From Patescibacteria group bacterium (GTDB lineage Bacteria > Patescibacteriota > Patescibacteriia > 2-01-FULL-39-33), in assembly GCA_041649575.1 (NCBI GenBank), contig JBAZMW010000002.1:60001-92000 (forward strand): a stretch of 32,000 bases of DNA, written 5' to 3'. Positions 20,987 through 31,930 of the stretch are shown here, in pieces. The position numbers and the translations under genes are program-made. Position 1 is the first letter of the stretch. Every line of letters starts with the position of its first letter. The notes under the pieces are model-generated. The model searched no databases. It had not been told where the DNA came from and was given only the letters and a program-made list of their open reading frames with translations.

Positions 20987-21017
20987 AAAAAGCGACCAAA
21001 ATCGCTTTTTTCATTTT
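20987..21017 (+). terminator. Rho-independent terminator after galU
   Basis: aaaaagcga-ccaaaa-tcgcttttt followed by tcatttt. Confidence 0.65.
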
Positions 21018-21028
21018 AGCTTTGTTTG

Positions 21029-21037
21029 TGTTATAAT
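21029..21037 (+). promoter_or_regulatory. Extended -10 promoter element (TGTTATAAT) 7 nt upstream of the hydrogenase beta-subunit ATG; implies a leaderless or near-leaderless transcript
   Basis: tgttataat at 21029-21037, ATG at 21045, and no SD between them. Confidence 0.4.
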
Positions 21038-21044
21038 ATATCCC

Positions 21045-22022
21045 ATGCTAGACCAAAATATTAAAAAGTTTTTGGCTAAACTCTCGCAGTCGTTTCTTTT
21101 GTTCGCCCCGCAACCGTTGGGGAGTGTTGTTAAAATAAAGCCAGTTGCAGAGATTGGCAATATCGACTGGTCGGGCGCTATGCCGCTCAACTCCTGGAAA
21201 GAAATTTTTTTACCAGCCAGAGAAAGATTATTCGACCTAAAGAAAAATTCTTTTTTTGAGTCCAAGACGGATTATCCGGCTACCGCCTGCATTGGCATTA
21301 ATGTTTTGGATTTAAAGGCCTTTACTTTATTTGAACAGGTGTTCGGCCGCGATGCTTATTATCAACAGCGGCGTCGCAATCTGTTGCTTGTCGGCTACAG
21401 CGCCCAGTGGCCCAATGATTACAAAAAATACAAAGTTTTCAGTCATAACTGGGAAGAAGATATTTTAGAGCATCTGGTTTTTGATATTTTTATAATTCAA
21501 CTGAAGAACGATAAAACCAAGATTTACTCCGGTTCAGAGAAAGGGCAATTGATTCTAGAAAAATACGGCCTGAAAAATTACACGCATTTGGAATTTGCCG
21601 GCGCTGTCAAAGAGCAAGGCCCGGATAAAAAAATGTTGGAGCTCAAGGAAAAGCTGGCTAAGGCCTCCAGCCACAAACTCTGGAACGAACTTGATAAAAT
21701 TTGCCTGGCCTGCGGTAAATGCTCGATCGCTTGCCCCACTTGTTTTTGTTTTGATTTATTTGATAAAGTCGACCCCGATAAGAATTGTCGCGAGCGTTAT
21801 TGGGGCAATTGTTTTTATAACGATTTTTCCAAGGTGGCCGGCGGTTTTAAAGAGCTAGACACAGTCAAAAAGAAGATTTATTTTTGGTATACCCACAAAT
21901 TTGTCCGCATTCCGCACGAATATTCTCTGCCCGGTTGTGTCGGTTGCGGCCGTTGCACTCGTGTTTGTCCGGTGGGAATTGATATTGCCAAAAACGTTTC
22001 TATTATCGGTAAAATCAGATAG
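21045..22022 (+). CDS. [NiFe]-hydrogenase group 3b (sulfhydrogenase-type) beta subunit, 4Fe-4S dicluster protein (AsrA-like)
   Basis: CLACGKCSIACPTCFC and CVGCGRCTRVCPVG ferredoxin motifs in the C-terminal half. The AsrA/HydB-like length and its position before an AsrB-like gene support the call. Confidence 0.8.
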   Translation: MLDQNIKKFLAKLSQSFLLFAPQPLGSVVKIKPVAEIGNIDWSGAMPLNSWKEIFLPARERLFDLKKNSFFESKTDYPATACIGINVLDLKAFTLFEQVFGRDAYYQQRRRNLLLVGYSAQWPNDYKKYKVFSHNWEEDILEHLVFDIFIIQLKNDKTKIYSGSEKGQLILEKYGLKNYTHLEFAGAVKEQGPDKKMLELKEKLAKASSHKLWNELDKICLACGKCSIACPTCFCFDLFDKVDPDKNCRERYWGNCFYNDFSKVAGGFKELDTVKKKIYFWYTHKFVRIPHEYSLPGCVGCGRCTRVCPVGIDIAKNVSIIGKIR

Positions 22023-22027
22023 TTTCA

Positions 22028-22849
22028 ATGAACAATATTTACCAAGCTCAACCAGCCAAAATAATCAGTGTCGTTCAAGAATCTTTAGACACCAGGTTTT
22101 TTCGCTTGACCTTTGTCAACAAAAAATTACAAAAGGAGCTGGCTTTTCTGCCGGGCCAATTCGTGCAAATCGGTTTGCCGGGCTGGGGCGAGTGTCCTAT
22201 TAGCATCTGTTCTTCCCCCTCCAACGCCAATAAATTCTTTGAGTTAGCCATCAGAAACGTCGGTACGCTGACTAATGAGCTTAGTCGGTTGAAAGCCGGG
22301 GAAATAGTGTTTATCCGCGGGCCATACGGCAACGGTTTTGATATCGATTTTTCCAAAGATAAGCCGCTAGTGATAATCGGCGGTGGTTGCGGTTTTGTGC
22401 CACTAAGGCCACTGATTCAGGATTTTTTGGCTGGCCGTTTGTCTAGTTCCAGCCTGCAGATATTTTATGGCTGCCTCAATGAAAAAACCCTGTTGTTTAG
22501 AAAAGAATATCATCTTTGGAATCGCCGCGCCGAACTCAACATTATTTTGGAAAAGCCGTCCAGAGAATGGAAGGGCAAAAAAGGCCTGATTACAGATCTG
22601 CTGGCCCAAAAAAAGATTTCGGCCAGCTCGGTGGCTGTTCTGGTGGGCCCGCCAGTGATGTACAGGTTTGTCATCAAGGAACTCAAAAAAAGAAATCTGA
22701 AAGATGAAAATATTTATTTGTCGCTGGAGCGGAAAATGTATTGCGGCACTGGTGTTTGCCAGCATTGTGCCATTGGCCCGTATTATGTCTGTAAAGATGG
22801 CCCGGTTTTCTCTTGGAGCCAGCTGAAAGGTTTGCCTCAAGCGATTTAA
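22028..22849 (+). CDS. [NiFe]-hydrogenase group 3b gamma subunit, FAD/NAD(P)-binding oxidoreductase with C-terminal 2Fe-2S (AsrB/PyrK-like)
   Basis: FLPGQFVQI (FAD-binding barrel), IIGGGCGFVPLRPL (NAD(P) binding) and C-terminal CGTGVCQHCAIGPYYVCKDGPVF. Confidence 0.85.
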   Translation: MNNIYQAQPAKIISVVQESLDTRFFRLTFVNKKLQKELAFLPGQFVQIGLPGWGECPISICSSPSNANKFFELAIRNVGTLTNELSRLKAGEIVFIRGPYGNGFDIDFSKDKPLVIIGGGCGFVPLRPLIQDFLAGRLSSSSLQIFYGCLNEKTLLFRKEYHLWNRRAELNIILEKPSREWKGKKGLITDLLAQKKISASSVAVLVGPPVMYRFVIKELKKRNLKDENIYLSLERKMYCGTGVCQHCAIGPYYVCKDGPVFSWSQLKGLPQAI

Positions 22850-23382: not shown

Positions 23383-23523
23383 ATGTTTGGAGTCGCCCTC
23401 ATTATCGTCGGAGCCATTTTTCTGCTCAAAGGTCTGGGCCTGTTATCCATGTTCCAATGGGACTTGATCTGGCCAGTCGTTTTAATTGTCATTGGTATCT
23501 TGATGGTTTTCAAAAGGAGGTAG
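23383..23523 (+). CDS. 46-aa two-helix membrane protein (DUF5668/LiaF-N-like)
   Basis: MFGVALIIVGAIFLLKGLGLLSMFQWDLIWPVVLIVIGILMVFKRR. Below the ORF-track length cut-off. Pattern G..L..GL.......W..WP..LI..G resembles DUF5668. Confidence 0.45.
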   Translation: MFGVALIIVGAIFLLKGLGLLSMFQWDLIWPVVLIVIGILMVFKRR

Positions 23524-23553: not shown

Positions 23554-24834
23554 ATGTGCCTCACTCTGCCGGCCAAAGTTGTTAAAGTCAAAGGGTTACA
23601 AGCCGAGATTTTAGCCAGTGGCGCAAAACAAGTGGTGAAAATAGGCACTGCCGCTAAAATTAGAGCGGGGGATTGGGTGCTTTATACCAATAATTTTTTA
23701 ATAAAAAAAATCAGTCAGACTGAAGCCGAAGAAATTTCCGCCTTGCTTGGTTCCTATCAAGGCGTTACCGAAGCTAAACTAGAAAAAAAATTAAAGGACA
23801 TTCTAACGGCCTCGTCCGTTCGCGATCTAAACGTCGAAGAGATTGAATATCTTTTGGGAGTTGATGGTCAAATTTCACAGGCAGCTCTTTTTTCACAGGC
23901 CAATGTGGCCAGAAAAGCCAATATCAAAGATCATATCTGTATCCATGGCATTATTGAGTTTTCCAACCACTGTCAAAACGATTGTCTTTATTGCGGCCTA
24001 AGGAGAAGTAATGACAAAGTTAGCCGTTACCGCCTGTCGCCGGAAAAAATAATCAAAATAGCAGTGGCTGCTGTCAATAATCGCGGTTACAAGATTCTGG
24101 TCTTGCAATCGGGCGAAGACGATTATTATAGCGATGGTAAAATAGAATTAATTATAAAAGAAATAAAAAAACAGGCCAGAGTTTTCATTTATTTAAGTAT
24201 TGGTGACAGAAGTGAAGCGGCTTACAAAAAATTCAAAGTTGCCGGCGCCAGCGGTGTCCTATACCGTTTTGAAACTTCCAACCCCGATATCTATGTCAGC
24301 CTGCACCCCGGCGACTCTCTGGAAAAAAGATTGGAAAATTTAGAAATGATGAGAAATCTGGGTTATGCGCTTTCCTCCGGGCCACTCATTGGCTTGCCAG
24401 CTCAAACATTAAAAGATTTGGCCAGTGATATAACACTAATGAAAAAGCTGGGTGTGTTTATGCCCTCAATGGGGCCGTTAATTCCTTCAGCCGAGACGCC
24501 GTTGGCCGGTGAAAAAAAGATTGATTTTGGCTTAGTTTTAAAAATGATTGCTGCCAGCCGTTTGGTTATGCCCAAAGCCAGAATTCCCGTTACTACTGCC
24601 ATGGAGACTTTGGCGCGAGGCGAGGGAATAAGTATCGATGAAGCTAGACAGAAATGTTTTATGGCCGGCGCTAATTCCGTAATGTTGAATCTGACTCCTG
24701 AAACCCAACGGCAGAAATATTATATTTATGAAAACAAATTTTTTGATGTCGAAAAGAAATATGAGAATTGGGGGTTGTTTAAGGGAGAATTGAGTTATCG
24801 GATGTTGGAAGAAGAGTTACGGGTCAGTATTTAA
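23554..24834 (+). CDS. Fusion protein: N-terminal HypC/HupF hydrogenase chaperone domain + HydE-like radical-SAM enzyme
   Basis: Residues 1-~70, MCLTLPAKVVKVKGLQAEILASGAKQVVKIGTAAKIRAGDWVLYTNNFLIKKISQTEAEEISALL, give the HypC pattern: Met-Cys start, G.xA.V, GDWVL, EAxE. The rest has IIEFSNHCQNDCLYCGLRR (CX3CX2C), VLQSGEDDYY, RFETSNP, GLPAQTLKDL, GPLIPSAETPLAG and IPVTTAMETL, the pattern I recognise from HydE (BioB/PylB/HmdB clade). Confidence 0.8.
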   Translation: MCLTLPAKVVKVKGLQAEILASGAKQVVKIGTAAKIRAGDWVLYTNNFLIKKISQTEAEEISALLGSYQGVTEAKLEKKLKDILTASSVRDLNVEEIEYLLGVDGQISQAALFSQANVARKANIKDHICIHGIIEFSNHCQNDCLYCGLRRSNDKVSRYRLSPEKIIKIAVAAVNNRGYKILVLQSGEDDYYSDGKIELIIKEIKKQARVFIYLSIGDRSEAAYKKFKVAGASGVLYRFETSNPDIYVSLHPGDSLEKRLENLEMMRNLGYALSSGPLIGLPAQTLKDLASDITLMKKLGVFMPSMGPLIPSAETPLAGEKKIDFGLVLKMIAASRLVMPKARIPVTTAMETLARGEGISIDEARQKCFMAGANSVMLNLTPETQRQKYYIYENKFFDVEKKYENWGLFKGELSYRMLEEELRVSI

Positions 24835-24879
24835 AATAAAAAAAGAAGCAGCTTCAGGCCGAACTCGGCCCGAAGCTGC
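24835..24879 (-). terminator. Rho-independent terminator of the minus-strand phosphatidyltransferase gene (convergent with the HypC-HydE gene)
   Basis: gcagcttcaggccga-ac-tcggcccgaagctgc (about 14 bp, one mismatch). On the minus strand it is followed by ttcttttttta. Confidence 0.75.
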
Positions 24880-24898
24880 GAATGATCGCCTCTTGCCA

Positions 24899-26116: not shown

Positions 26117-26134
26117 TTTTTGATTACTAATTAC

Positions 26135-26950
26135 ATGGCCAAGGCAAAAAAACCACGATTAGCAATTATCGGCCTGACATCTTGTGAGGGCTGCCAGTTT
26201 TCCATGCTCGACAAAGGCCGGAGATTCTTGGGTTTAATGAAAAATTTTCAGGTAAAGGAATTTCGTCTAGTGGAGGATGAAAAAATGCTCGAAGAGAATT
26301 TTGACCTGTGTTTGGTTGAGGGCAACCCCGTCACCAAAGAAAACATTAGATTGCTCAAAGAAATGCGGCGGCGGTCGAAATTGTTAGTAGTTATTGGTAA
26401 TTGCGCGGCTTTGGGTGGTGTCTGGGAGCTCAAAAATTATCAGAATAAGAAAAAGACCATCAGGCAGGTTTATAAAAAAATAAAAGTAGCCAATCCTGAC
26501 ATTAAGGAAGTGGATAATTTTGTTAAAGTTGACTTTACCATCCCCGGTTGTCCCATAGACGGTGAGGAGTTTATGGAGCTGGCCTATCAGCTTTTAAGTG
26601 GCCGGATTCCGAAAATCCCTCAGAATCCTGTTTGCCATGAATGTCAAACAAGAGGTTATGAGTGTTTACTGCAGCAAGGAGAGATTTGTCTCGGGCCGAT
26701 TACTCTGGGTGGTTGTCGGGCAGTGTGCCTCAAAAGCCGGCAGGCCTGCTGGGGTTGCCGTGGATTGTTTGAGGGCGCGCGAGTGGAAAATTTAATGAAG
26801 GAACTGCTGTCAAAATTTCCTCGCGAACAGGTTTATCGGGTGATGGAGGTGTTTGGAGCGAGAGATAGTATTTTGAAGGAGTTGGAACAGGAAGAAAAGC
26901 CAGCTGAAATTAAAAATGTAAAACTAAAAGTTAAAAATTCTAAAAAATAA
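26135..26950 (+). CDS. [NiFe]-hydrogenase group 3b delta (small) subunit
   Basis: RLAIIGLTSCEGCQFS (proximal-cluster Cys motif of NuoB-like small subunits), GNCAALGG, IPGCP, and C-terminal Cys clusters CHECQTRGYEC...CLGPITLGGC...CWGC. ATG at 26135 is preferred to TTG 26120. Confidence 0.85.
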   Translation: MAKAKKPRLAIIGLTSCEGCQFSMLDKGRRFLGLMKNFQVKEFRLVEDEKMLEENFDLCLVEGNPVTKENIRLLKEMRRRSKLLVVIGNCAALGGVWELKNYQNKKKTIRQVYKKIKVANPDIKEVDNFVKVDFTIPGCPIDGEEFMELAYQLLSGRIPKIPQNPVCHECQTRGYECLLQQGEICLGPITLGGCRAVCLKSRQACWGCRGLFEGARVENLMKELLSKFPREQVYRVMEVFGARDSILKELEQEEKPAEIKNVKLKVKNSKK

Positions 26951-27275: not shown

Positions 27276-27308
27276 CGGTTTAAATAAAAATATATTAATT
27301 TGAGTTTT

Positions 27309-28331
27309 ATGTCATTATCTAAAGCGGAGGCTAAAATTCTGCAGTCAATTATTGTGTCTTCAGAAAATAATCCCAGTCGACCAGAATTTCCGGCCGATGA
27401 TCCTAAATTTCCCGCCACCCCAACTTATAAAATTAAAGTGCCAGGCTTTTCTAATGTTTGGCTCAAAGATGAAAGCCATAATCCCACCGGAACCCATAAA
27501 GATCGGATGGCTTGGGAAATAATTGTTACTTATCGTGATTTTTTATTGACCCAAAAACGAGGGCAAATTAAAGGTATTCTACCGGCCGTGTCAATTATTT
27601 CCTCTGGATCGGCGGCTGTCGCCATCCAAACACAACTACGGAAATATCATTTGCCAAATCTCAAAGTTTTAGTCGACTCTTATCTTAATCAGGAAATTGT
27701 AAATTCACTCAAAAAAATTGGCTGTAGAATTTATAAAACTGATTTAAGCAAAAAACCATTTCATTGGAAGGAAATTTTAGAGTTGACTCATAATCCAAAT
27801 GGTTTTGATATTACTTCTAATGAGGCTTTAGACCCGGCTATGAGATTTTATGACTGGCTAAGTTATGAGATAATTAATAATTCACCAGACTATTGTTTTA
27901 TTCCTTTCGGTACCGGCAATCTTTATGAGAATATTTTGAATATTAATAAAAAAGAAGTTTCAACTAAAAATCATGACCCTCGATTCAAGGGTAAGGTTGA
28001 AATTCTTAGGAATTGTAATTTTTTTGGCGTGACGACAAATAATCCAAGATCCCGAGCCGAAAAACTTTATTCGCCTCACTTGCCTTTTGTCCATTACGAT
28101 GAGCAGTGGATTAGGCTGTATCGGCATGCCGGTTATTGTGGTCCAAAATCAAATGTTTATTTATTGAAGGAGCAATATCTTAATGAGGCAATGAAAATTG
28201 CCGTTGCTCAAAAGATAAATTATGAGCCTTCTGGTATCTCTGGACTGGCCTTGCTTCTACAAATAAAAAATAAACTTCCTAAAAATAAGAAGATTTTAGT
28301 TATTAATACTGGGAAAACTAAATATATTTAG
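27309..28331 (+). CDS. Fold-type II PLP-dependent enzyme (threonine synthase/cysteine synthase superfamily), specificity unknown
   Basis: WLKDESHNPTGTHKDRMAWE (PLP-lysine motif, cf. NPTGSFKDR), ISSGSAAVAIQ (cf. SSGNxG) and PFGTGNL (phosphate-binding loop, cf. GTGGT). ATG at 27309 is preferred to TTG 27300. Confidence 0.7.
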   Translation: MSLSKAEAKILQSIIVSSENNPSRPEFPADDPKFPATPTYKIKVPGFSNVWLKDESHNPTGTHKDRMAWEIIVTYRDFLLTQKRGQIKGILPAVSIISSGSAAVAIQTQLRKYHLPNLKVLVDSYLNQEIVNSLKKIGCRIYKTDLSKKPFHWKEILELTHNPNGFDITSNEALDPAMRFYDWLSYEIINNSPDYCFIPFGTGNLYENILNINKKEVSTKNHDPRFKGKVEILRNCNFFGVTTNNPRSRAEKLYSPHLPFVHYDEQWIRLYRHAGYCGPKSNVYLLKEQYLNEAMKIAVAQKINYEPSGISGLALLLQIKNKLPKNKKILVINTGKTKYI

Positions 28332-28379: not shown

Positions 28380-29678
28380 ATGCGTATCCAAATAAATCAC
28401 ATTGGTAAAATGGAAGGCCACACGGACTTCGTGGCCGAGATTTTGAAAGGTGATGTCAAATCAGCCAAACTGATGACCACCGAAGGTGCTCGTCTGATAG
28501 AGGGCATTTTGGTCGGCCGTAATTTTTACGAGGCGCCGATTATCACTTCTCGCATCTGTGGTATCTGCCCGGTGGTTCATAAAATTTCCTCCATTAGGGC
28601 GCTGGAGAACGCTTTAGCTATTAAGCCCAGTGAACAGACAATTAAATTAAGAAAACTAATGCTGATGGCGCAAACCATTCATAGCCACGCCTTACATTTG
28701 TTTTTTTTGTCTTTGCCGGATTTTTTCAACCTATTGGACGACTTTAAATTTATTGCCAACCATAAAAAAGAAACTGATTGCGCTATTAAGGTGCGTGAGT
28801 GGGCTTTGAAAGTTATTGAAACTGTTGGCGGACGGGCGGTACATCCGATTGCTTGTGAAGTTGGTGGCTTTAAGGTTTTGCCCGACAAAAAAGAATTGAA
28901 AGATTTGGCTGATCAATACGAAAACATTCTAAAACAGGCACTGTGTCTGGTGAATCTGACTATCAAAATAAAATTTCCCAAATTTAGCCGGCCCACGACC
29001 TTCATTTCTTTGACCAATGAAAAAGAATACGCCTTTTATGATGGCGATATTAAAATTTTAAATAAAAATGGCCAGACAAGGATTATTAAGGCCAAAGATT
29101 TTACCAAGAATATTAAGGAGATCGAAGAGCCCTATCGCGCCGCCAAATCGGCTGAGTTAAAGGGTGAGCCGTTTATGGTCGGCGCTTTGGCGCGACTAAA
29201 TAACAATCATAGCCAATTGAATCACTTGGCCAAGGGAATTCAAAAAGGTTTAAAATGGAAGTTCCCGCAGTATAATTCTTTTGAAAATATTACCGCCCAG
29301 GCTATTGAAATCGTCCATTGTCTAGAGGAAGCCAAAAAATTACTTGACGATTTAGTTAAAAATTTGAAAAATGAGACCAGTCAGGCCGAGAAGCTCGGCT
29401 TAATTGGTCAGGCCAATCCCTTGGGACGTGAGACAAGTGGCTGTGACGCCAGCGAGGCGCCGCGTGGCACCTTGTATCATTATTACGCCATTGATAAAGA
29501 CGGCTATATCAAGGATTGTCAGATTATCACGCCGACGGTGTCTTTTTTAAAAAATTTGGAAGCAGATATTATTGCCTATATCCCGGATTTGAAAAAAATG
29601 TCGCCCGAAAAATGTTCACGCAAAATCCGCGCCCTTATTCGCGCCTATGATCCTTGTATTAGTTGCGCCACACATTAA
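28380..29678 (+). CDS. [NiFe]-hydrogenase group 3b alpha (large, catalytic) subunit
   Basis: N-terminal Ni-Fe ligand motif RICGICPVVH. The C-terminal ligand motif DPCISCATH is immediately followed by the stop codon. Confidence 0.92.
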   Translation: MRIQINHIGKMEGHTDFVAEILKGDVKSAKLMTTEGARLIEGILVGRNFYEAPIITSRICGICPVVHKISSIRALENALAIKPSEQTIKLRKLMLMAQTIHSHALHLFFLSLPDFFNLLDDFKFIANHKKETDCAIKVREWALKVIETVGGRAVHPIACEVGGFKVLPDKKELKDLADQYENILKQALCLVNLTIKIKFPKFSRPTTFISLTNEKEYAFYDGDIKILNKNGQTRIIKAKDFTKNIKEIEEPYRAAKSAELKGEPFMVGALARLNNNHSQLNHLAKGIQKGLKWKFPQYNSFENITAQAIEIVHCLEEAKKLLDDLVKNLKNETSQAEKLGLIGQANPLGRETSGCDASEAPRGTLYHYYAIDKDGYIKDCQIITPTVSFLKNLEADIIAYIPDLKKMSPEKCSRKIRALIRAYDPCISCATH

Positions 29679-29716: not shown

Positions 29717-30073
29717 ATGGCATTTAGATTCGAAAGTTTGGAGATTTGGAAAGAGGCGATTAATTTTTCTAGTTCTACTTATAAAATTACTCGTCAGTTT
29801 CCCAAAGAAGAACTGTTTAGTTTATCTAGTCAGTTAAATCGGGCTGCGATTTCTATTTCGGCTAATATAGCCGAGGGCTCGGCAAGTGATAGTGTAAAAG
29901 AGTTTAGAATGTTTCTGAATATTTCCATTAGATCTGGCGTCGAAGTAATATCTGAATTATTTATAGCTAAAGAAAGAAGCTATTTATCAGACGAAGAATT
30001 CGGCGAGTTATACAATACTGGAGAATTATTAATAAGAAGAATTTCCTCATTTCGCAATCAATTAAAATTATAA
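29717..30073 (+). CDS. Four-helix-bundle protein (23S rRNA intervening-sequence protein family)
   Basis: FESLEIWKEAINFSSSTYKITRQFPKEELFSLSSQLNRAAISISANIAEGSA matches the conserved core of this family. Confidence 0.85.
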   Translation: MAFRFESLEIWKEAINFSSSTYKITRQFPKEELFSLSSQLNRAAISISANIAEGSASDSVKEFRMFLNISIRSGVEVISELFIAKERSYLSDEEFGELYNTGELLIRRISSFRNQLKL

Positions 30074-30096: not shown

Positions 30097-30351
30097 ATGC
30101 ACGATTTCCACTTAGCCGACATAATCTATAAAACAATTTTAGATTACGCCCAAAAAAATAATTTGAAAAAAATCACCAAAGCGGTGATTGATTTGGGACA
30201 GATTATTGAGCATGGTGAGGAGGTGTTGGCGGAAAATTTGGATTTTAATATCAAAATGTTGGCCCAAGGTGGCCTGGCCGAAGGCTTAGAGCTGGTTATT
30301 AACAAAACAGCCGGTGATAGCTGGGTGCTAAAGGAAATAGAAGGAGTATAA
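30097..30351 (+). CDS. HypA-like nickel metallochaperone lacking the zinc-finger domain ('mini-HypA')
   Basis: MHDFHLADIIYKTILDYAQKNNLKKITKAVIDLGQI...LAEGLELVI aligns by eye with HypA (MHE..L......v...a...g..kV..v.l.iG......e.L.F.f......t.aEga.L.i). The 84-aa protein has no cysteine, so the CxxC...CxxC Zn site is absent. Confidence 0.65.
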   Translation: MHDFHLADIIYKTILDYAQKNNLKKITKAVIDLGQIIEHGEEVLAENLDFNIKMLAQGGLAEGLELVINKTAGDSWVLKEIEGV

Positions 30352-31545: not shown

Positions 31546-31930
31546 TTTTGTCATTGCGAGCGGAGTGAAACGCAGCGAAGCAATCTTTTAGATAAGACAG
31601 ATATGGCCAAATATTATTACGTTTATGTTTTGACTAATGCCAACAATTATGTTTTATACACAGGAGTCACAAATAATTTGCAGAGAAGGTTATGGGAACA
31701 CAAAAGCGGTAAGGCGGACGGTTTTACTAAAAAATATAAGTGTAAAAAATTGGTTTATTATGAATATTCGGAGTCAATAGGCGCAGCCATAAATAGAGAA
31801 AAACAAATTAAGGCCGGCTCAAGAAAAAAGAAATTGGAATTGATAAACAATTTTAATCCGCAGTGGTTGGATTTGGGGCTGGAGATGTTTTAAGAGATTG
31901 CTTCGCTTTGCTCGCAATGACAAAATAAAA
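31546..31930 (+). mobile_element. GIY-YIG gene cassette bounded by ~30-nt imperfect inverted repeats
   Basis: The left end is ttttgtcattgcgagc[ggagtgaaacgc]agcgaagcaatct (31546-31586). The reverse complement of the right end (31893-31925) is ttttgtcattgcgagc[a]aagcgaagcaatct. The ORF fills the space between them. Confidence 0.6.
31603..31893 (+). CDS. GIY-YIG nuclease family protein (UPF0213-like)
   Basis: YYVYVLTNANNYVLYTGVTNNLQRRLWEHK (GIY...YIG...R..EH core) and REKQIK further downstream. Confidence 0.85.
   Translation: MAKYYYVYVLTNANNYVLYTGVTNNLQRRLWEHKSGKADGFTKKYKCKKLVYYEYSESIGAAINREKQIKAGSRKKKLELINNFNPQWLDLGLEMF

Follow-up and report, generated by a model that had tools for sequence, protein, structure and literature searches.

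The stretch of DNA analysed here, hereafter the window, comprises 32,000 nucleotides of a Patescibacteria group bacterium (contig JBAZMW010000002.1 of assembly GCA_041649575.1, positions 60,001 to 92,000). It contains a group-3b-type [NiFe]-hydrogenase operon, in keeping with the first-pass annotation of this DNA, which had placed a [NiFe]-hydrogenase locus here. Inside the operon lies a gene that joins a HypC-like chaperone domain to a full-length HydE-like radical-SAM (S-adenosylmethionine) enzyme. This gene, called the fusion below, is the subject of the analysis, and its coordinates, like those of all other features, are given within the window (Table 1). A run of plus-strand genes, beginning with that for the hydrogenase beta-type subunit and ending with the fusion, follows a promoter-like site (21008-21037) and has gaps of 3-30 bases between genes. 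After the fusion come a strong hairpin and a convergent gene for a CDP-alcohol phosphatidyltransferase, then, again on the plus strand, genes for an unknown membrane protein and the small subunit. The small-subunit gene is followed by genes encoding an unknown protein of 106 amino acids, a pyridoxal phosphate (PLP)-dependent enzyme, the large subunit, a '23S rRNA intervening sequence' protein, a HypA-like protein, and phosphoglycerate kinase. No hypB, hypD, hypE, hypF, hydG, hydF, or [FeFe]-hydrogenase gene was found in the 32 kb; the earlier statement that the window lacks an [FeFe] hydrogenase, HydG, and HydF was upheld by profile and tblastn searches of the window.

Table 1. Features of the fusion gene and of the surrounding operon, with positions in the window.
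Feature	Position	Strand	Basis
HypC-HydE fusion gene, 426 amino acids	23554..24834	+	Open reading frame and translation, Pfam, NCBIfam
HypC-like domain, residues 1-68: Met-Cys N-terminus, beta-barrel, one helix	23554..23757	+	Pfam, PDB, AlphaFold2
Inter-domain linker, residues ~69-81	23758..23796	+	Gap from end of HypC match to start of alignment with Thermotoga maritima HydE (TmHydE)
Full-length HydE-type radical-SAM domain, residues 82-426	23797..24834	+	phmmer against PDB, Foldseek
Radical-SAM cluster motif Cys140-x3-Cys144-x2-Cys147	23971..23994	+	Aligns to TmHydE Cys63/67/70
Met303, equivalent to TmHydE Met224	24460..24462	+	Alignment; invariant in 72 fusions
Met377, equivalent to TmHydE Met291	24682..24684	+	Alignment; invariant in 72 fusions
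Lys395, equivalent to TmHydE Lys309	24736..24738	+	Alignment with TmHydE
Hydrogenase beta-type subunit (Fe-S), start of the operon	21045..22022	+	Pfam Fer4_22; NCBIfam ShyB/HydB best
Hydrogenase gamma-type subunit (FAD/NAD(P), 2Fe-2S)	22028..22849	+	Pfam FAD_binding_6, NAD_binding_1, DHODB_Fe-S_bind; NCBIfam hydrogenase gamma, ShyC
Membrane-anchored methyltransferase-like protein, 170 amino acids	22853..23365	+	Weak class-I methyltransferase matches
LiaF-TM-like membrane peptide, 46 amino acids, directly 5' of the fusion	23383..23523	+	Pfam LiaI-LiaF-like_TM1
Hairpin, 14-base-pair stem, between the fusion and the convergent gene; site of HydG in relatives	24848..24879	.	Terminator scan
[NiFe] small (delta) subunit	26120..26950	+	Pfam Oxidored_q6; NCBIfam ShyD/HydD best
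Divergent PLP-dependent (PALP fold) enzyme, between the small- and large-subunit genes	27300..28331	+	Weak matches to threonine synthase, SbnA, CysM
[NiFe] large subunit, both Cys pairs, no C-terminal extension	28380..29678	+	Pfam NiFeSe_Hases; NCBIfam ShyA/HydA (group 3b) best
Truncated HypA-like nickel chaperone, 84 amino acids, starts MHD, no zinc-site Cys	30097..30351	+	Pfam HypA

[NiFe] and [FeFe] hydrogenases are a textbook case of convergent evolution and have separate maturation machinery, HypA-F and HydEFG, respectively. HypC, HybG, and HupF are chaperones of HypCD, the Fe(CN)2CO scaffold, the cyanide being supplied by HypE and HypF. The fusion gene is a single unbroken frame of 426 codons that opens with ATG-TGC, encoding Met-Cys, as the first-pass annotation had read it. 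Its HypC part begins MCLTLPAK and matches the full Pfam HupF_HypC profile (PF01455; residues 1-65 against positions 1-65 of 65) with 50.0 bits, against a gathering score of 28.5, while the PDB HypC chains 2z1c and 3vyr align with residues 1-63. The NCBIfam HypC model TIGR00074 gives 33.9 bits, under its cut-off of 48. In an AlphaFold2 model this part forms strands over residues 2-53 and a helix over residues 55-65, with a predicted local distance difference test score (pLDDT) of 86-94; the result is a beta-barrel resembling the oligonucleotide-binding fold, with a C-terminal helix.

In HypC, two residues, Cys2 and His51, are implicated in binding iron. Of 88 fusions, 86 retain Cys2. In the fusions, the column of Escherichia coli HypC His51 never contains His and is occupied by Thr, Ala, Gln, Ile, or Met (Thr in the window); stand-alone HypC genes found in fusion loci keep His51 in nine of nine cases. 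Judged from the sequences, the loss of His51 fits a changed mode of holding the iron fragment in the fused domain. A separate, canonical, His-keeping HypC gene lies directly 5' of the fusion in loci L049, L051, L052, L054, L060, L063, L064, L070, and L086.

HydE is the radical-SAM maturase for the H-cluster of [FeFe] hydrogenases; it turns (Cys)Fe(CO)2(CN) into the [Fe2S2(CO)4(CN)2] precursor, and the family is defined functionally by its occurrence together with HydF and an [FeFe] hydrogenase. The second part of the protein is of HydE type, and the first-pass identification of both halves was borne out by Pfam, NCBIfam, and PDB matches. Pfam places Radical_SAM at residues 134-292 (68.4 bits) and BATS at residues 309-379. 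The NCBIfam HydE equivalog TIGR03956 gives 257.0 bits against a cut-off of 254.6, a narrow pass; other fusions reach 258-283 bits and stand-alone HydEs 356-379 bits. By phmmer the best PDB sequence match is TmHydE (240 bits, E = 3e-70, residues 82-401), PylB being next with 78 bits. The AlphaFold2 model, built with 72 homologues, is compact, with a mean pLDDT of 92.5, a predicted template modelling (TM) score of 0.91, and nothing below 50. A Foldseek search with this model again ranked TmHydE top (E = 4e-34, TM score 0.86-0.91), complex-B-bound entries included. PylB, BioB, and HmdB/HcgA belong to the same BioB-like TIM-barrel radical-SAM superfamily but score far lower: 128.9 bits for PylB, 88.8 for BioB, and 63.3 for HmdB in NCBIfam, with HydG at 51.7, and a Foldseek E-value for PylB (3e-21) that is 13 orders of magnitude worse than that of HydE. 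Identity of the domain as BioB, PylB, HmdB, or ThiH was thus ruled out by hidden Markov model, PDB-sequence, and fold scores, leaving HydE, as originally proposed.

A linker of about 60 residues had been assumed between the two domains. TmHydE residue 5 aligns with residue 82 of the fusion, so most of that supposed linker is HydE's own N-terminal helices and only about 13 residues remain, for which disorder is not predicted (pLDDT block means of 81-89). The HydE motifs listed in the first-pass annotation are all present, and each of them (IIEFSNHCQNDCLYCGLRR, VLQSGEDDYY, ETSNP, GLPAQTLKDL, GPLIPSAETPLA, and IPVTTA) matches its TmHydE counterpart. Cys140, Cys144, and Cys147 are invariant across 72 fusions; Lys395 is invariant in an alignment of 12 sequences and at least 90% conserved in the 72. 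In TmHydE, Met224 and Met291 bind Fe(I)(CO)2(CN)S intermediates and Lys309 is a proposed radical relay (PMC11826987). Because the catalytic cysteines, Met303, Met377, and Lys395 are all kept, the domain resembles a functional HydE that has a HydG-type synthon as its substrate and a pocket that appears not to have been remodelled. The tail past Lys395 contains no Cys, as had been noted, and therefore offers no auxiliary-cluster site.

A word-indexed protein search returned 763 relatives. All of the best 120 clusters match the fusion in length, and both domains are present in every one except a single cluster, at 43-64% identity; metagenome-assembled genomes (MAGs) of Patescibacteria are the source of most. 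In the databases such proteins are named '[FeFe] hydrogenase H-cluster radical SAM maturase HydE' (NCBI) or 'biotin synthase' (JGI), and the fusion of the window is identical to a database protein, P0001, that NCBI names 'HydE'. A scan of one genome per GTDB species gave 114 relatives, of which 80 were kept, and the fusion architecture occurs in 88 GTDB species-representative genomes. Patescibacterial carriers include Buchananbacteria, Falkowbacteria, Moranbacteria, Berkelbacteria, and Peregrinibacteria, as well as contigs labelled Saccharibacteria. The anammox bacteria Kuenenia, Brocadiaceae, Wunengus, and Scalindua also carry the fusion, as do MAGs labelled Deltaproteobacteria, Planctomycetota, and Thermodesulfobacteriota, the Omnitrophota, and a Nanoarchaeota MAG (DPANN archaea).

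An exhaustive, profile-free search with the radical-SAM domain alone (50%-identity representatives) distinguished two N-terminal types: MCLTIPAK..., that of the window, and MCYAIPGKV..., seen in Omnitrophota among others. A neighbour-joining tree was made from 212 HydE-like domains, with E. coli BioB as root and 100 bootstraps. One of its clades, with 95 leaves (bootstrap 60/100), contains all 83 recognised fusions, which is moderate support for monophyly of the fused form. The other twelve leaves of the clade are mostly fusions with mis-called starts or truncated fragments, though two or three may be genuinely stand-alone. Fusions of the second type group together with a bootstrap of 75/100. 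Four other HydE-like radical-SAM proteins (P0155, P0162, P0178, and P0235) have an N-terminal Se_S_carrier domain (PF11823, a putative Se/S carrier) in place of HypC, which suggests that the HydE family has repeatedly been fused to small Cys-bearing carrier domains. Of further architectures, P0154 resembles a HydE-HydG fusion without HypC, and P0157 has a dephospho-CoA kinase domain.

The surroundings of the fusion were compared in 88 loci and the window, taking 10 kb on either side of each fusion (1.34 Mb in total) for gene calling, clustering, and searches. A [NiFe] large-subunit gene lies within this distance in 49 of the 89 loci, a small-subunit gene in 41, a gamma-subunit gene in 32, and a beta-subunit gene in 30; by a rough estimate, a random gene would be that near a single-copy gene in about 2% of cases, taking a genome of about 1,000 genes. 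The linkage of the fusion to hydrogenases, raised in the first-pass annotation, is accordingly strong and extends across phyla. The order beta, gamma, (methyltransferase-like), LiaF-TM, fusion, small, large, HypA, phosphoglycerate kinase is shared by L001, L002, and L004, and the fusion sits between the gamma- and small-subunit genes in these three loci, the window, L007, and L008.

HydG is a frequent partner. It is encoded in 54 of the 83 loci that are informative on this point: in 47 of these it lies directly downstream of the fusion, in 4 at another place in the locus, and in 3 it is fused; in five further loci the downstream sequence is too short to judge. In L007, whose fusion is 60% identical to that of the window, and in L008, a HydG of 455-457 amino acids is encoded directly 3' of the fusion, inside the hydrogenase operon. 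Two proteins, P0123 and P0127 (881 and 906 amino acids), are HypC-HydE-HydG triple fusions that score 631 and 607 bits against the HydG equivalog (cut-off 312) and keep the HydG C-terminal CX2CX22C motif. One of them is encoded in a 3b operon of Falkowbacteria, the other beside beta, gamma, small, large, and HycI genes in a genome from outside the candidate phyla radiation (CPR). HydG as a separate protein is common among Patescibacteria, where its genes share contigs with fusions.

The synteny of the fusion with [NiFe] structural genes, hypA, hypB, and a [NiFe] protease gene recurs in bacteria and archaea. In L047 (Wunengus) the order is fusion, HydG, HypA, HypB, small subunit, large subunit, histidine kinase, and response regulator; in L031 it is HypB, fusion, HydG, and protease, with large, small, gamma, and beta nearby. 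L092 has fusion, HydG, and HypA inside 7 kb, and on L103, an archaeal contig (family-B polymerase, FEN1), HypA, fusion, and HydG stand beside large, small, gamma, and beta. In three MAGs of anammox bacteria or Planctomycetota (L047, L039, and L032) the genes for the fusion, HydG, HypA, and HypB precede that of a 484-amino-acid large subunit, which is followed by histidine kinase and response regulator genes. The module is therefore not tied to enzymes of 3b type, and a sensory-type [NiFe] hydrogenase may be served by it as well. In Kuenenia (L044 and L041) the fusion is intact, a type I restriction-modification insertion follows it, HydG is missing, and only fragments (95 and 66 amino acids) remain of the small- and large-subunit genes downstream of hypA-hypB; the system appears to be decaying there, which makes Kuenenia a poor cultured test case.

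HypA-F and HycI of E. coli, taken from the annotated K-12 record, served as tblastn and phmmer queries against the same 1.34 Mb. With these queries, 8 loci gave a HypB match (about 45% identity), at least 13 loci a HypA match, and 6-9 loci a match to a HycI-type protease. No match to HypD, HypE, or HypF was obtained within 10 kb of any of the 89 fusions. Across the 1.34 Mb, the motif GPGCPVC (HypD), the C-terminal PRIC (HypE), and the HypF zinc-finger motifs were found in the E. coli control only, and the GFETT motif had one extra, isolated match, in L055. Neither an [FeFe] H-cluster motif set nor a HydF-like GTPase was found in these flanks, and the loci annotated with Pfam likewise showed no HydF or [FeFe] hydrogenase.

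The large subunit of the window has RICGICPVVH and a C-terminus of exactly ...DPCISCATH, so all four metal-ligating Cys are kept. Since the protein stops at DPCISCATH, it has no maturation-protease extension. Among relatives, 33 large subunits end at the His of DPCxxCxxH, and a protease gene is present in none of those loci; another 12 carry C-terminal extensions (7-26 residues), and a protease gene is present in 7 of the loci concerned. Every large subunit with a complete C-terminus keeps both Cys-pair motifs.

On this gene content and residue conservation, we lean towards the view that HypC-HydE, normally with HydG, constitutes a [NiFe] maturation module that would replace HypC, HypD, HypE, and HypF. 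Starting from tyrosine, HydG would make the (cysteinate)Fe(CO)2(CN) synthon. This would then be taken up as substrate by the HydE domain, which would remove the cysteine carbon skeleton by SAM-derived radical chemistry, the resulting Fe-carbonyl-cyanide fragment being held on Met303 and Met377. The tethered HypC domain could catch this mononuclear fragment on Cys2, in place of the dimerisation and hand-over to HydF of the [FeFe] pathway, and pass it to the apo large subunit. Nickel would follow from the HypA-like protein, and from HypB too where present. As the large subunit of the window has no C-terminal extension, a protease step would not be needed. The two CN and one CO ligands of the [NiFe] site would, on this scheme, have their origin in HydG chemistry. 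The first-pass annotation had suggested a hybrid of the two maturation logics, in which radical chemistry may act on a species held by HypC; the hybrid idea is considerably strengthened by the adjacency of HydG, the triple fusions, and the co-localisation of hypA, hypB, and protease genes without hypDEF.

Several observations weigh against this proposal. The product of HydG carries two CO and one CN, and the [NiFe] site one CO and two CN. The searches for HypD, HypE, and HypF covered 10 kb on each side of the fusions and not whole genomes. The canonical stand-alone HypC present in nine loci, and not the fused domain, may be the real carrier there. No hydrogenase is close to some of the fusions (L003, L061, and the L042 group). 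HydG is absent within 10 kb in 29 of the 83 informative loci, and the window is one of the operons without it. The window belongs to a Buchananbacteria-like clade of 15 leaves in which operons with and without HydG interleave, implying repeated loss or relocation of HydG. Loci L093-L099 (including GCA_001817505.1) have the order beta, gamma, LiaF-TM, fusion, HydG, convergent CDP-alcohol transferase, and small subunit, which is the arrangement of the window plus HydG. In L093 the HydG start codon comes right after the stop codon of the fusion (TAAATG), where the window has only the hairpin. Because the fusion of the window is collinear with that of L093 up to the stop codon and tblastn found no remnant of HydG in the window, hydG has been cleanly deleted from this operon (window 24835-24898, compared with L093 6001-7402), with the fusion, the hydrogenase motifs, and HypA left intact. 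Among the best 120 HydG proteins listed as closest to the HydG of a relative (two queries), none lies on the 235, 280, 440, and 505 kb contigs that carry HydG-less operons; HydG may thus be absent from the genomes concerned, as far as these incomplete genomes indicate. This loss is what the proposal accounts for least: for its CO and CN, the window's lineage would either have HydG elsewhere or obtain or make the ligands in some other way.

The limit of the HypDEF searches to 10 kb, and the nine loci with a canonical, His-containing HypC beside the fusion, would also suit an accessory role, in which HypDEF encoded elsewhere make the cyanides and HydG with HypC-HydE gives only the carbonyl, or an Fe-CO fragment, to HypCD. 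Such a role would fill the place of the unknown anaerobic CO source, and the anaerobic origin of CO is the most pressing open question according to a 2025 review (PMC12134894). We consider it unlikely, given that the fusion and HydG are accompanied by hypA, hypB, and the protease gene but, in 89 loci from many phyla, never by hypD, hypE, or hypF. HydG also makes cyanide, which would render HypE and HypF redundant, and the conserved His has been lost from the fused HypC domain. A distinctly unlikely alternative is that the HydE-like domain has diverged to modify another substrate, such as cysteine bound to a protein or some small compound of sulfur or iron that has no relation to the HydG synthon, with HypC as a mere Cys-carrier or docking module. 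It would account for the HydG-less lineages, the window included, and for the fusions without a nearby hydrogenase, and it agrees with the borderline HydE equivalog scores and with the Se_S_carrier, a different Cys-carrier, at the N-terminus of other HydE-like proteins. The equivalents of Met224, Met291, and Lys309, however, vary little or not at all, most lineages have HydG next to the fusion or joined to it, and the gene of the window still lies in the middle of a hydrogenase operon.

A variant of the proposed module, to which we give hardly more than an outside chance, takes the ligand count at face value: [NiFe] maturation would run wholly on tyrosine-derived ligands without HypDEF and, because HydG delivers Fe(CO)2(CN), the active site or the intermediate built on Cys2 may differ from NiFe(CN)2(CO). 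At the extreme, Cys2 of HypC would replace free cysteine in the HydG synthon, and HydE would act on a protein-bound organometallic. Were this so, HydG-less lineages such as that of the window would imply another ligand source. It is very improbable that HydG and HydE serve an ordinary [FeFe] hydrogenase encoded elsewhere, their position among [NiFe] genes being incidental. The NCBI names ('[FeFe] hydrogenase H-cluster radical SAM maturase HydE' and 'HydG') would point that way, and DPANN archaea are reported to have [FeFe] hydrogenases (PMC11216029); yet the 1.34 Mb around the 89 fusions contained no H-cluster motif set or HydF-like GTPase, the synteny with [NiFe] genes recurs in both bacteria and archaea, and a HypC domain is without a known role in the [FeFe] pathway. 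Finally, the chance that the fusion is an artefact of a frameshift, mis-assembly, or the read-through of two genes, a concern raised in the first-pass annotation, is negligible. Nothing speaks in favour of it, the AlphaFold2 model is compact, and the same single reading frame in the best 120 clusters, which come from independent assemblies, and in 88 representative genomes rules it out; the fusion is real.

The proposed HypC-HydE(-HydG) module can be set beside several known systems. Like HydE of T. maritima (PDB 3CIW, 7O1O, and 8QMK), to which it is about 40% identical over the full length, its radical-SAM part has the same fold, the CX3CX2C motif, a BATS-type C-terminal half, and conserved Met224, Met291, and Lys309, and it is usually encoded next to HydG. 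Unlike HydE, it is joined to HypC, lies at the edge of the equivalog model, lacks auxiliary-cluster Cys, occurs in [NiFe] operons, was not found near HydF or HydA in the 1.34 Mb of flanks, and forms its own, moderately supported clade. Its N-terminal part shares with the HypC/HybG/HupF chaperones a length of about 70 residues, the Met-Cys start, the beta-barrel and helix, and a gene location in a [NiFe] operon, and differs from them in its covalent tie to a radical-SAM enzyme, the replacement of His51, a score below the NCBIfam HypC cut-off, and the lack of HypD nearby.

Algal HydEF is a natural maturase fusion, and such fusions, like HydG's hand-over of complex B to HydE, physically couple successive steps on labile organometallic iron. 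The HypC-HydE-HydG triple fusions are consistent with channelling of this kind. Here the downstream acceptor, HypC, would come from the [NiFe] system, unlike HydF in those cases. Direct HydG-to-HydE transfer is attributed to Omeiri et al. 2023, as cited in PMC11826987. HypX, an aerobic CO source for [NiFe] hydrogenases, is an add-on supplier of a diatomic ligand (PMC12134894). The present module would likewise be an add-on feeding a diatomic ligand to [NiFe] maturation; unlike HypX, which uses formyl-tetrahydrofolate and works alongside HypCDEF, it would be radical-SAM-based, anaerobic, and apparently without HypDEF.

The component families are all known; the wiring between them is new. Jaffe et al. 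2020 note a protein family with hypC homology near CPR group-3b hydrogenases and say nothing further on it. The fusion and HydG-linked [NiFe] operons are undescribed in that study, in the 2025 review of [NiFe] maturation (PMC12134894), and in the archaeal hydrogenase study of Greening 2024 (PMC11216029). In full-text literature we found no description of a HypC-HydE fusion, of HydG in [NiFe] operons, or of a HypDEF-independent [NiFe] pathway, in agreement with the first-pass annotation, which took such a hybrid of maturation logics as not known to be described. If the proposal is true, a conserved module in [NiFe] operons breaks the separation between the two maturation machineries and implies a second route to the [NiFe] Fe-carbonyl-cyanide unit, dependent on tyrosine and radical-SAM chemistry. 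This would bear directly on where anaerobes get the CO ligand from, explain active hydrogenases in genome-reduced Patescibacteria and DPANN archaea, offer a far smaller gene set for heterologous [NiFe] hydrogenase production, and correct the widespread annotation as '[FeFe] maturase HydE' or 'biotin synthase'.

Among the other genes of the window, those of the four hydrogenase subunits match the sulfhydrogenase Shy/Hyd models best and score far under the equivalog cut-offs. The methyltransferase-like gene, encoding about 170 amino acids, is also present in L001, L002, L004, L009, L010, L012, L014, and L015. The best NCBIfam match of its product is an archaeal protein-lysine methyltransferase, far under the cut-off, and a second copy of such a gene follows the large-subunit gene in L002, L012, L015, and L066. 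The 46-amino-acid LiaF-TM peptide occupies the same slot in L001, L002, L004, L007, and L093-L099. The HypA-like gene has the same position in L001, L002, L004, L007, and L008. Its product passes the Pfam HypA gathering score narrowly (29.8 bits against 28.9), the match covering profile positions 1-69 of 112; it retains the MH(D/E) start of the nickel site at its N-terminus and lacks the entire zinc-binding CxxC...CxxC domain. This short form (84-85 amino acids) also occurs in CPR relatives, and CPR loci have no HypB.

The PLP-dependent enzyme has weak matches (about 30 bits) to threonine synthase, SbnA, and CysM. Its gene looks like a lineage-specific insertion because the homologous operons of relatives have no counterpart. 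It may be relevant, HydE chemistry consuming cysteine and releasing pyruvate. Genes for '23S rRNA intervening sequence' proteins, which are four-helix bundles, lie at 29717-30073 and 31603-31893 of the window. In several operons that are collinear in other respects (L005, L007, L010, L018, and L067), the space from the large-subunit gene to hypA is again occupied by such genes and by GIY-YIG genes, which suggests that this slot is a hotspot for small mobile or selfish genes. Operons collinear with those of Buchananbacteria and Falkowbacteria are also found in MAGs labelled 'uncultured Gammaproteobacteria' or 'Saccharibacteria' (L010, L012, L014, L017, L023, L024, and others); the taxon labels of these third-party-annotated MAGs are probably unreliable.

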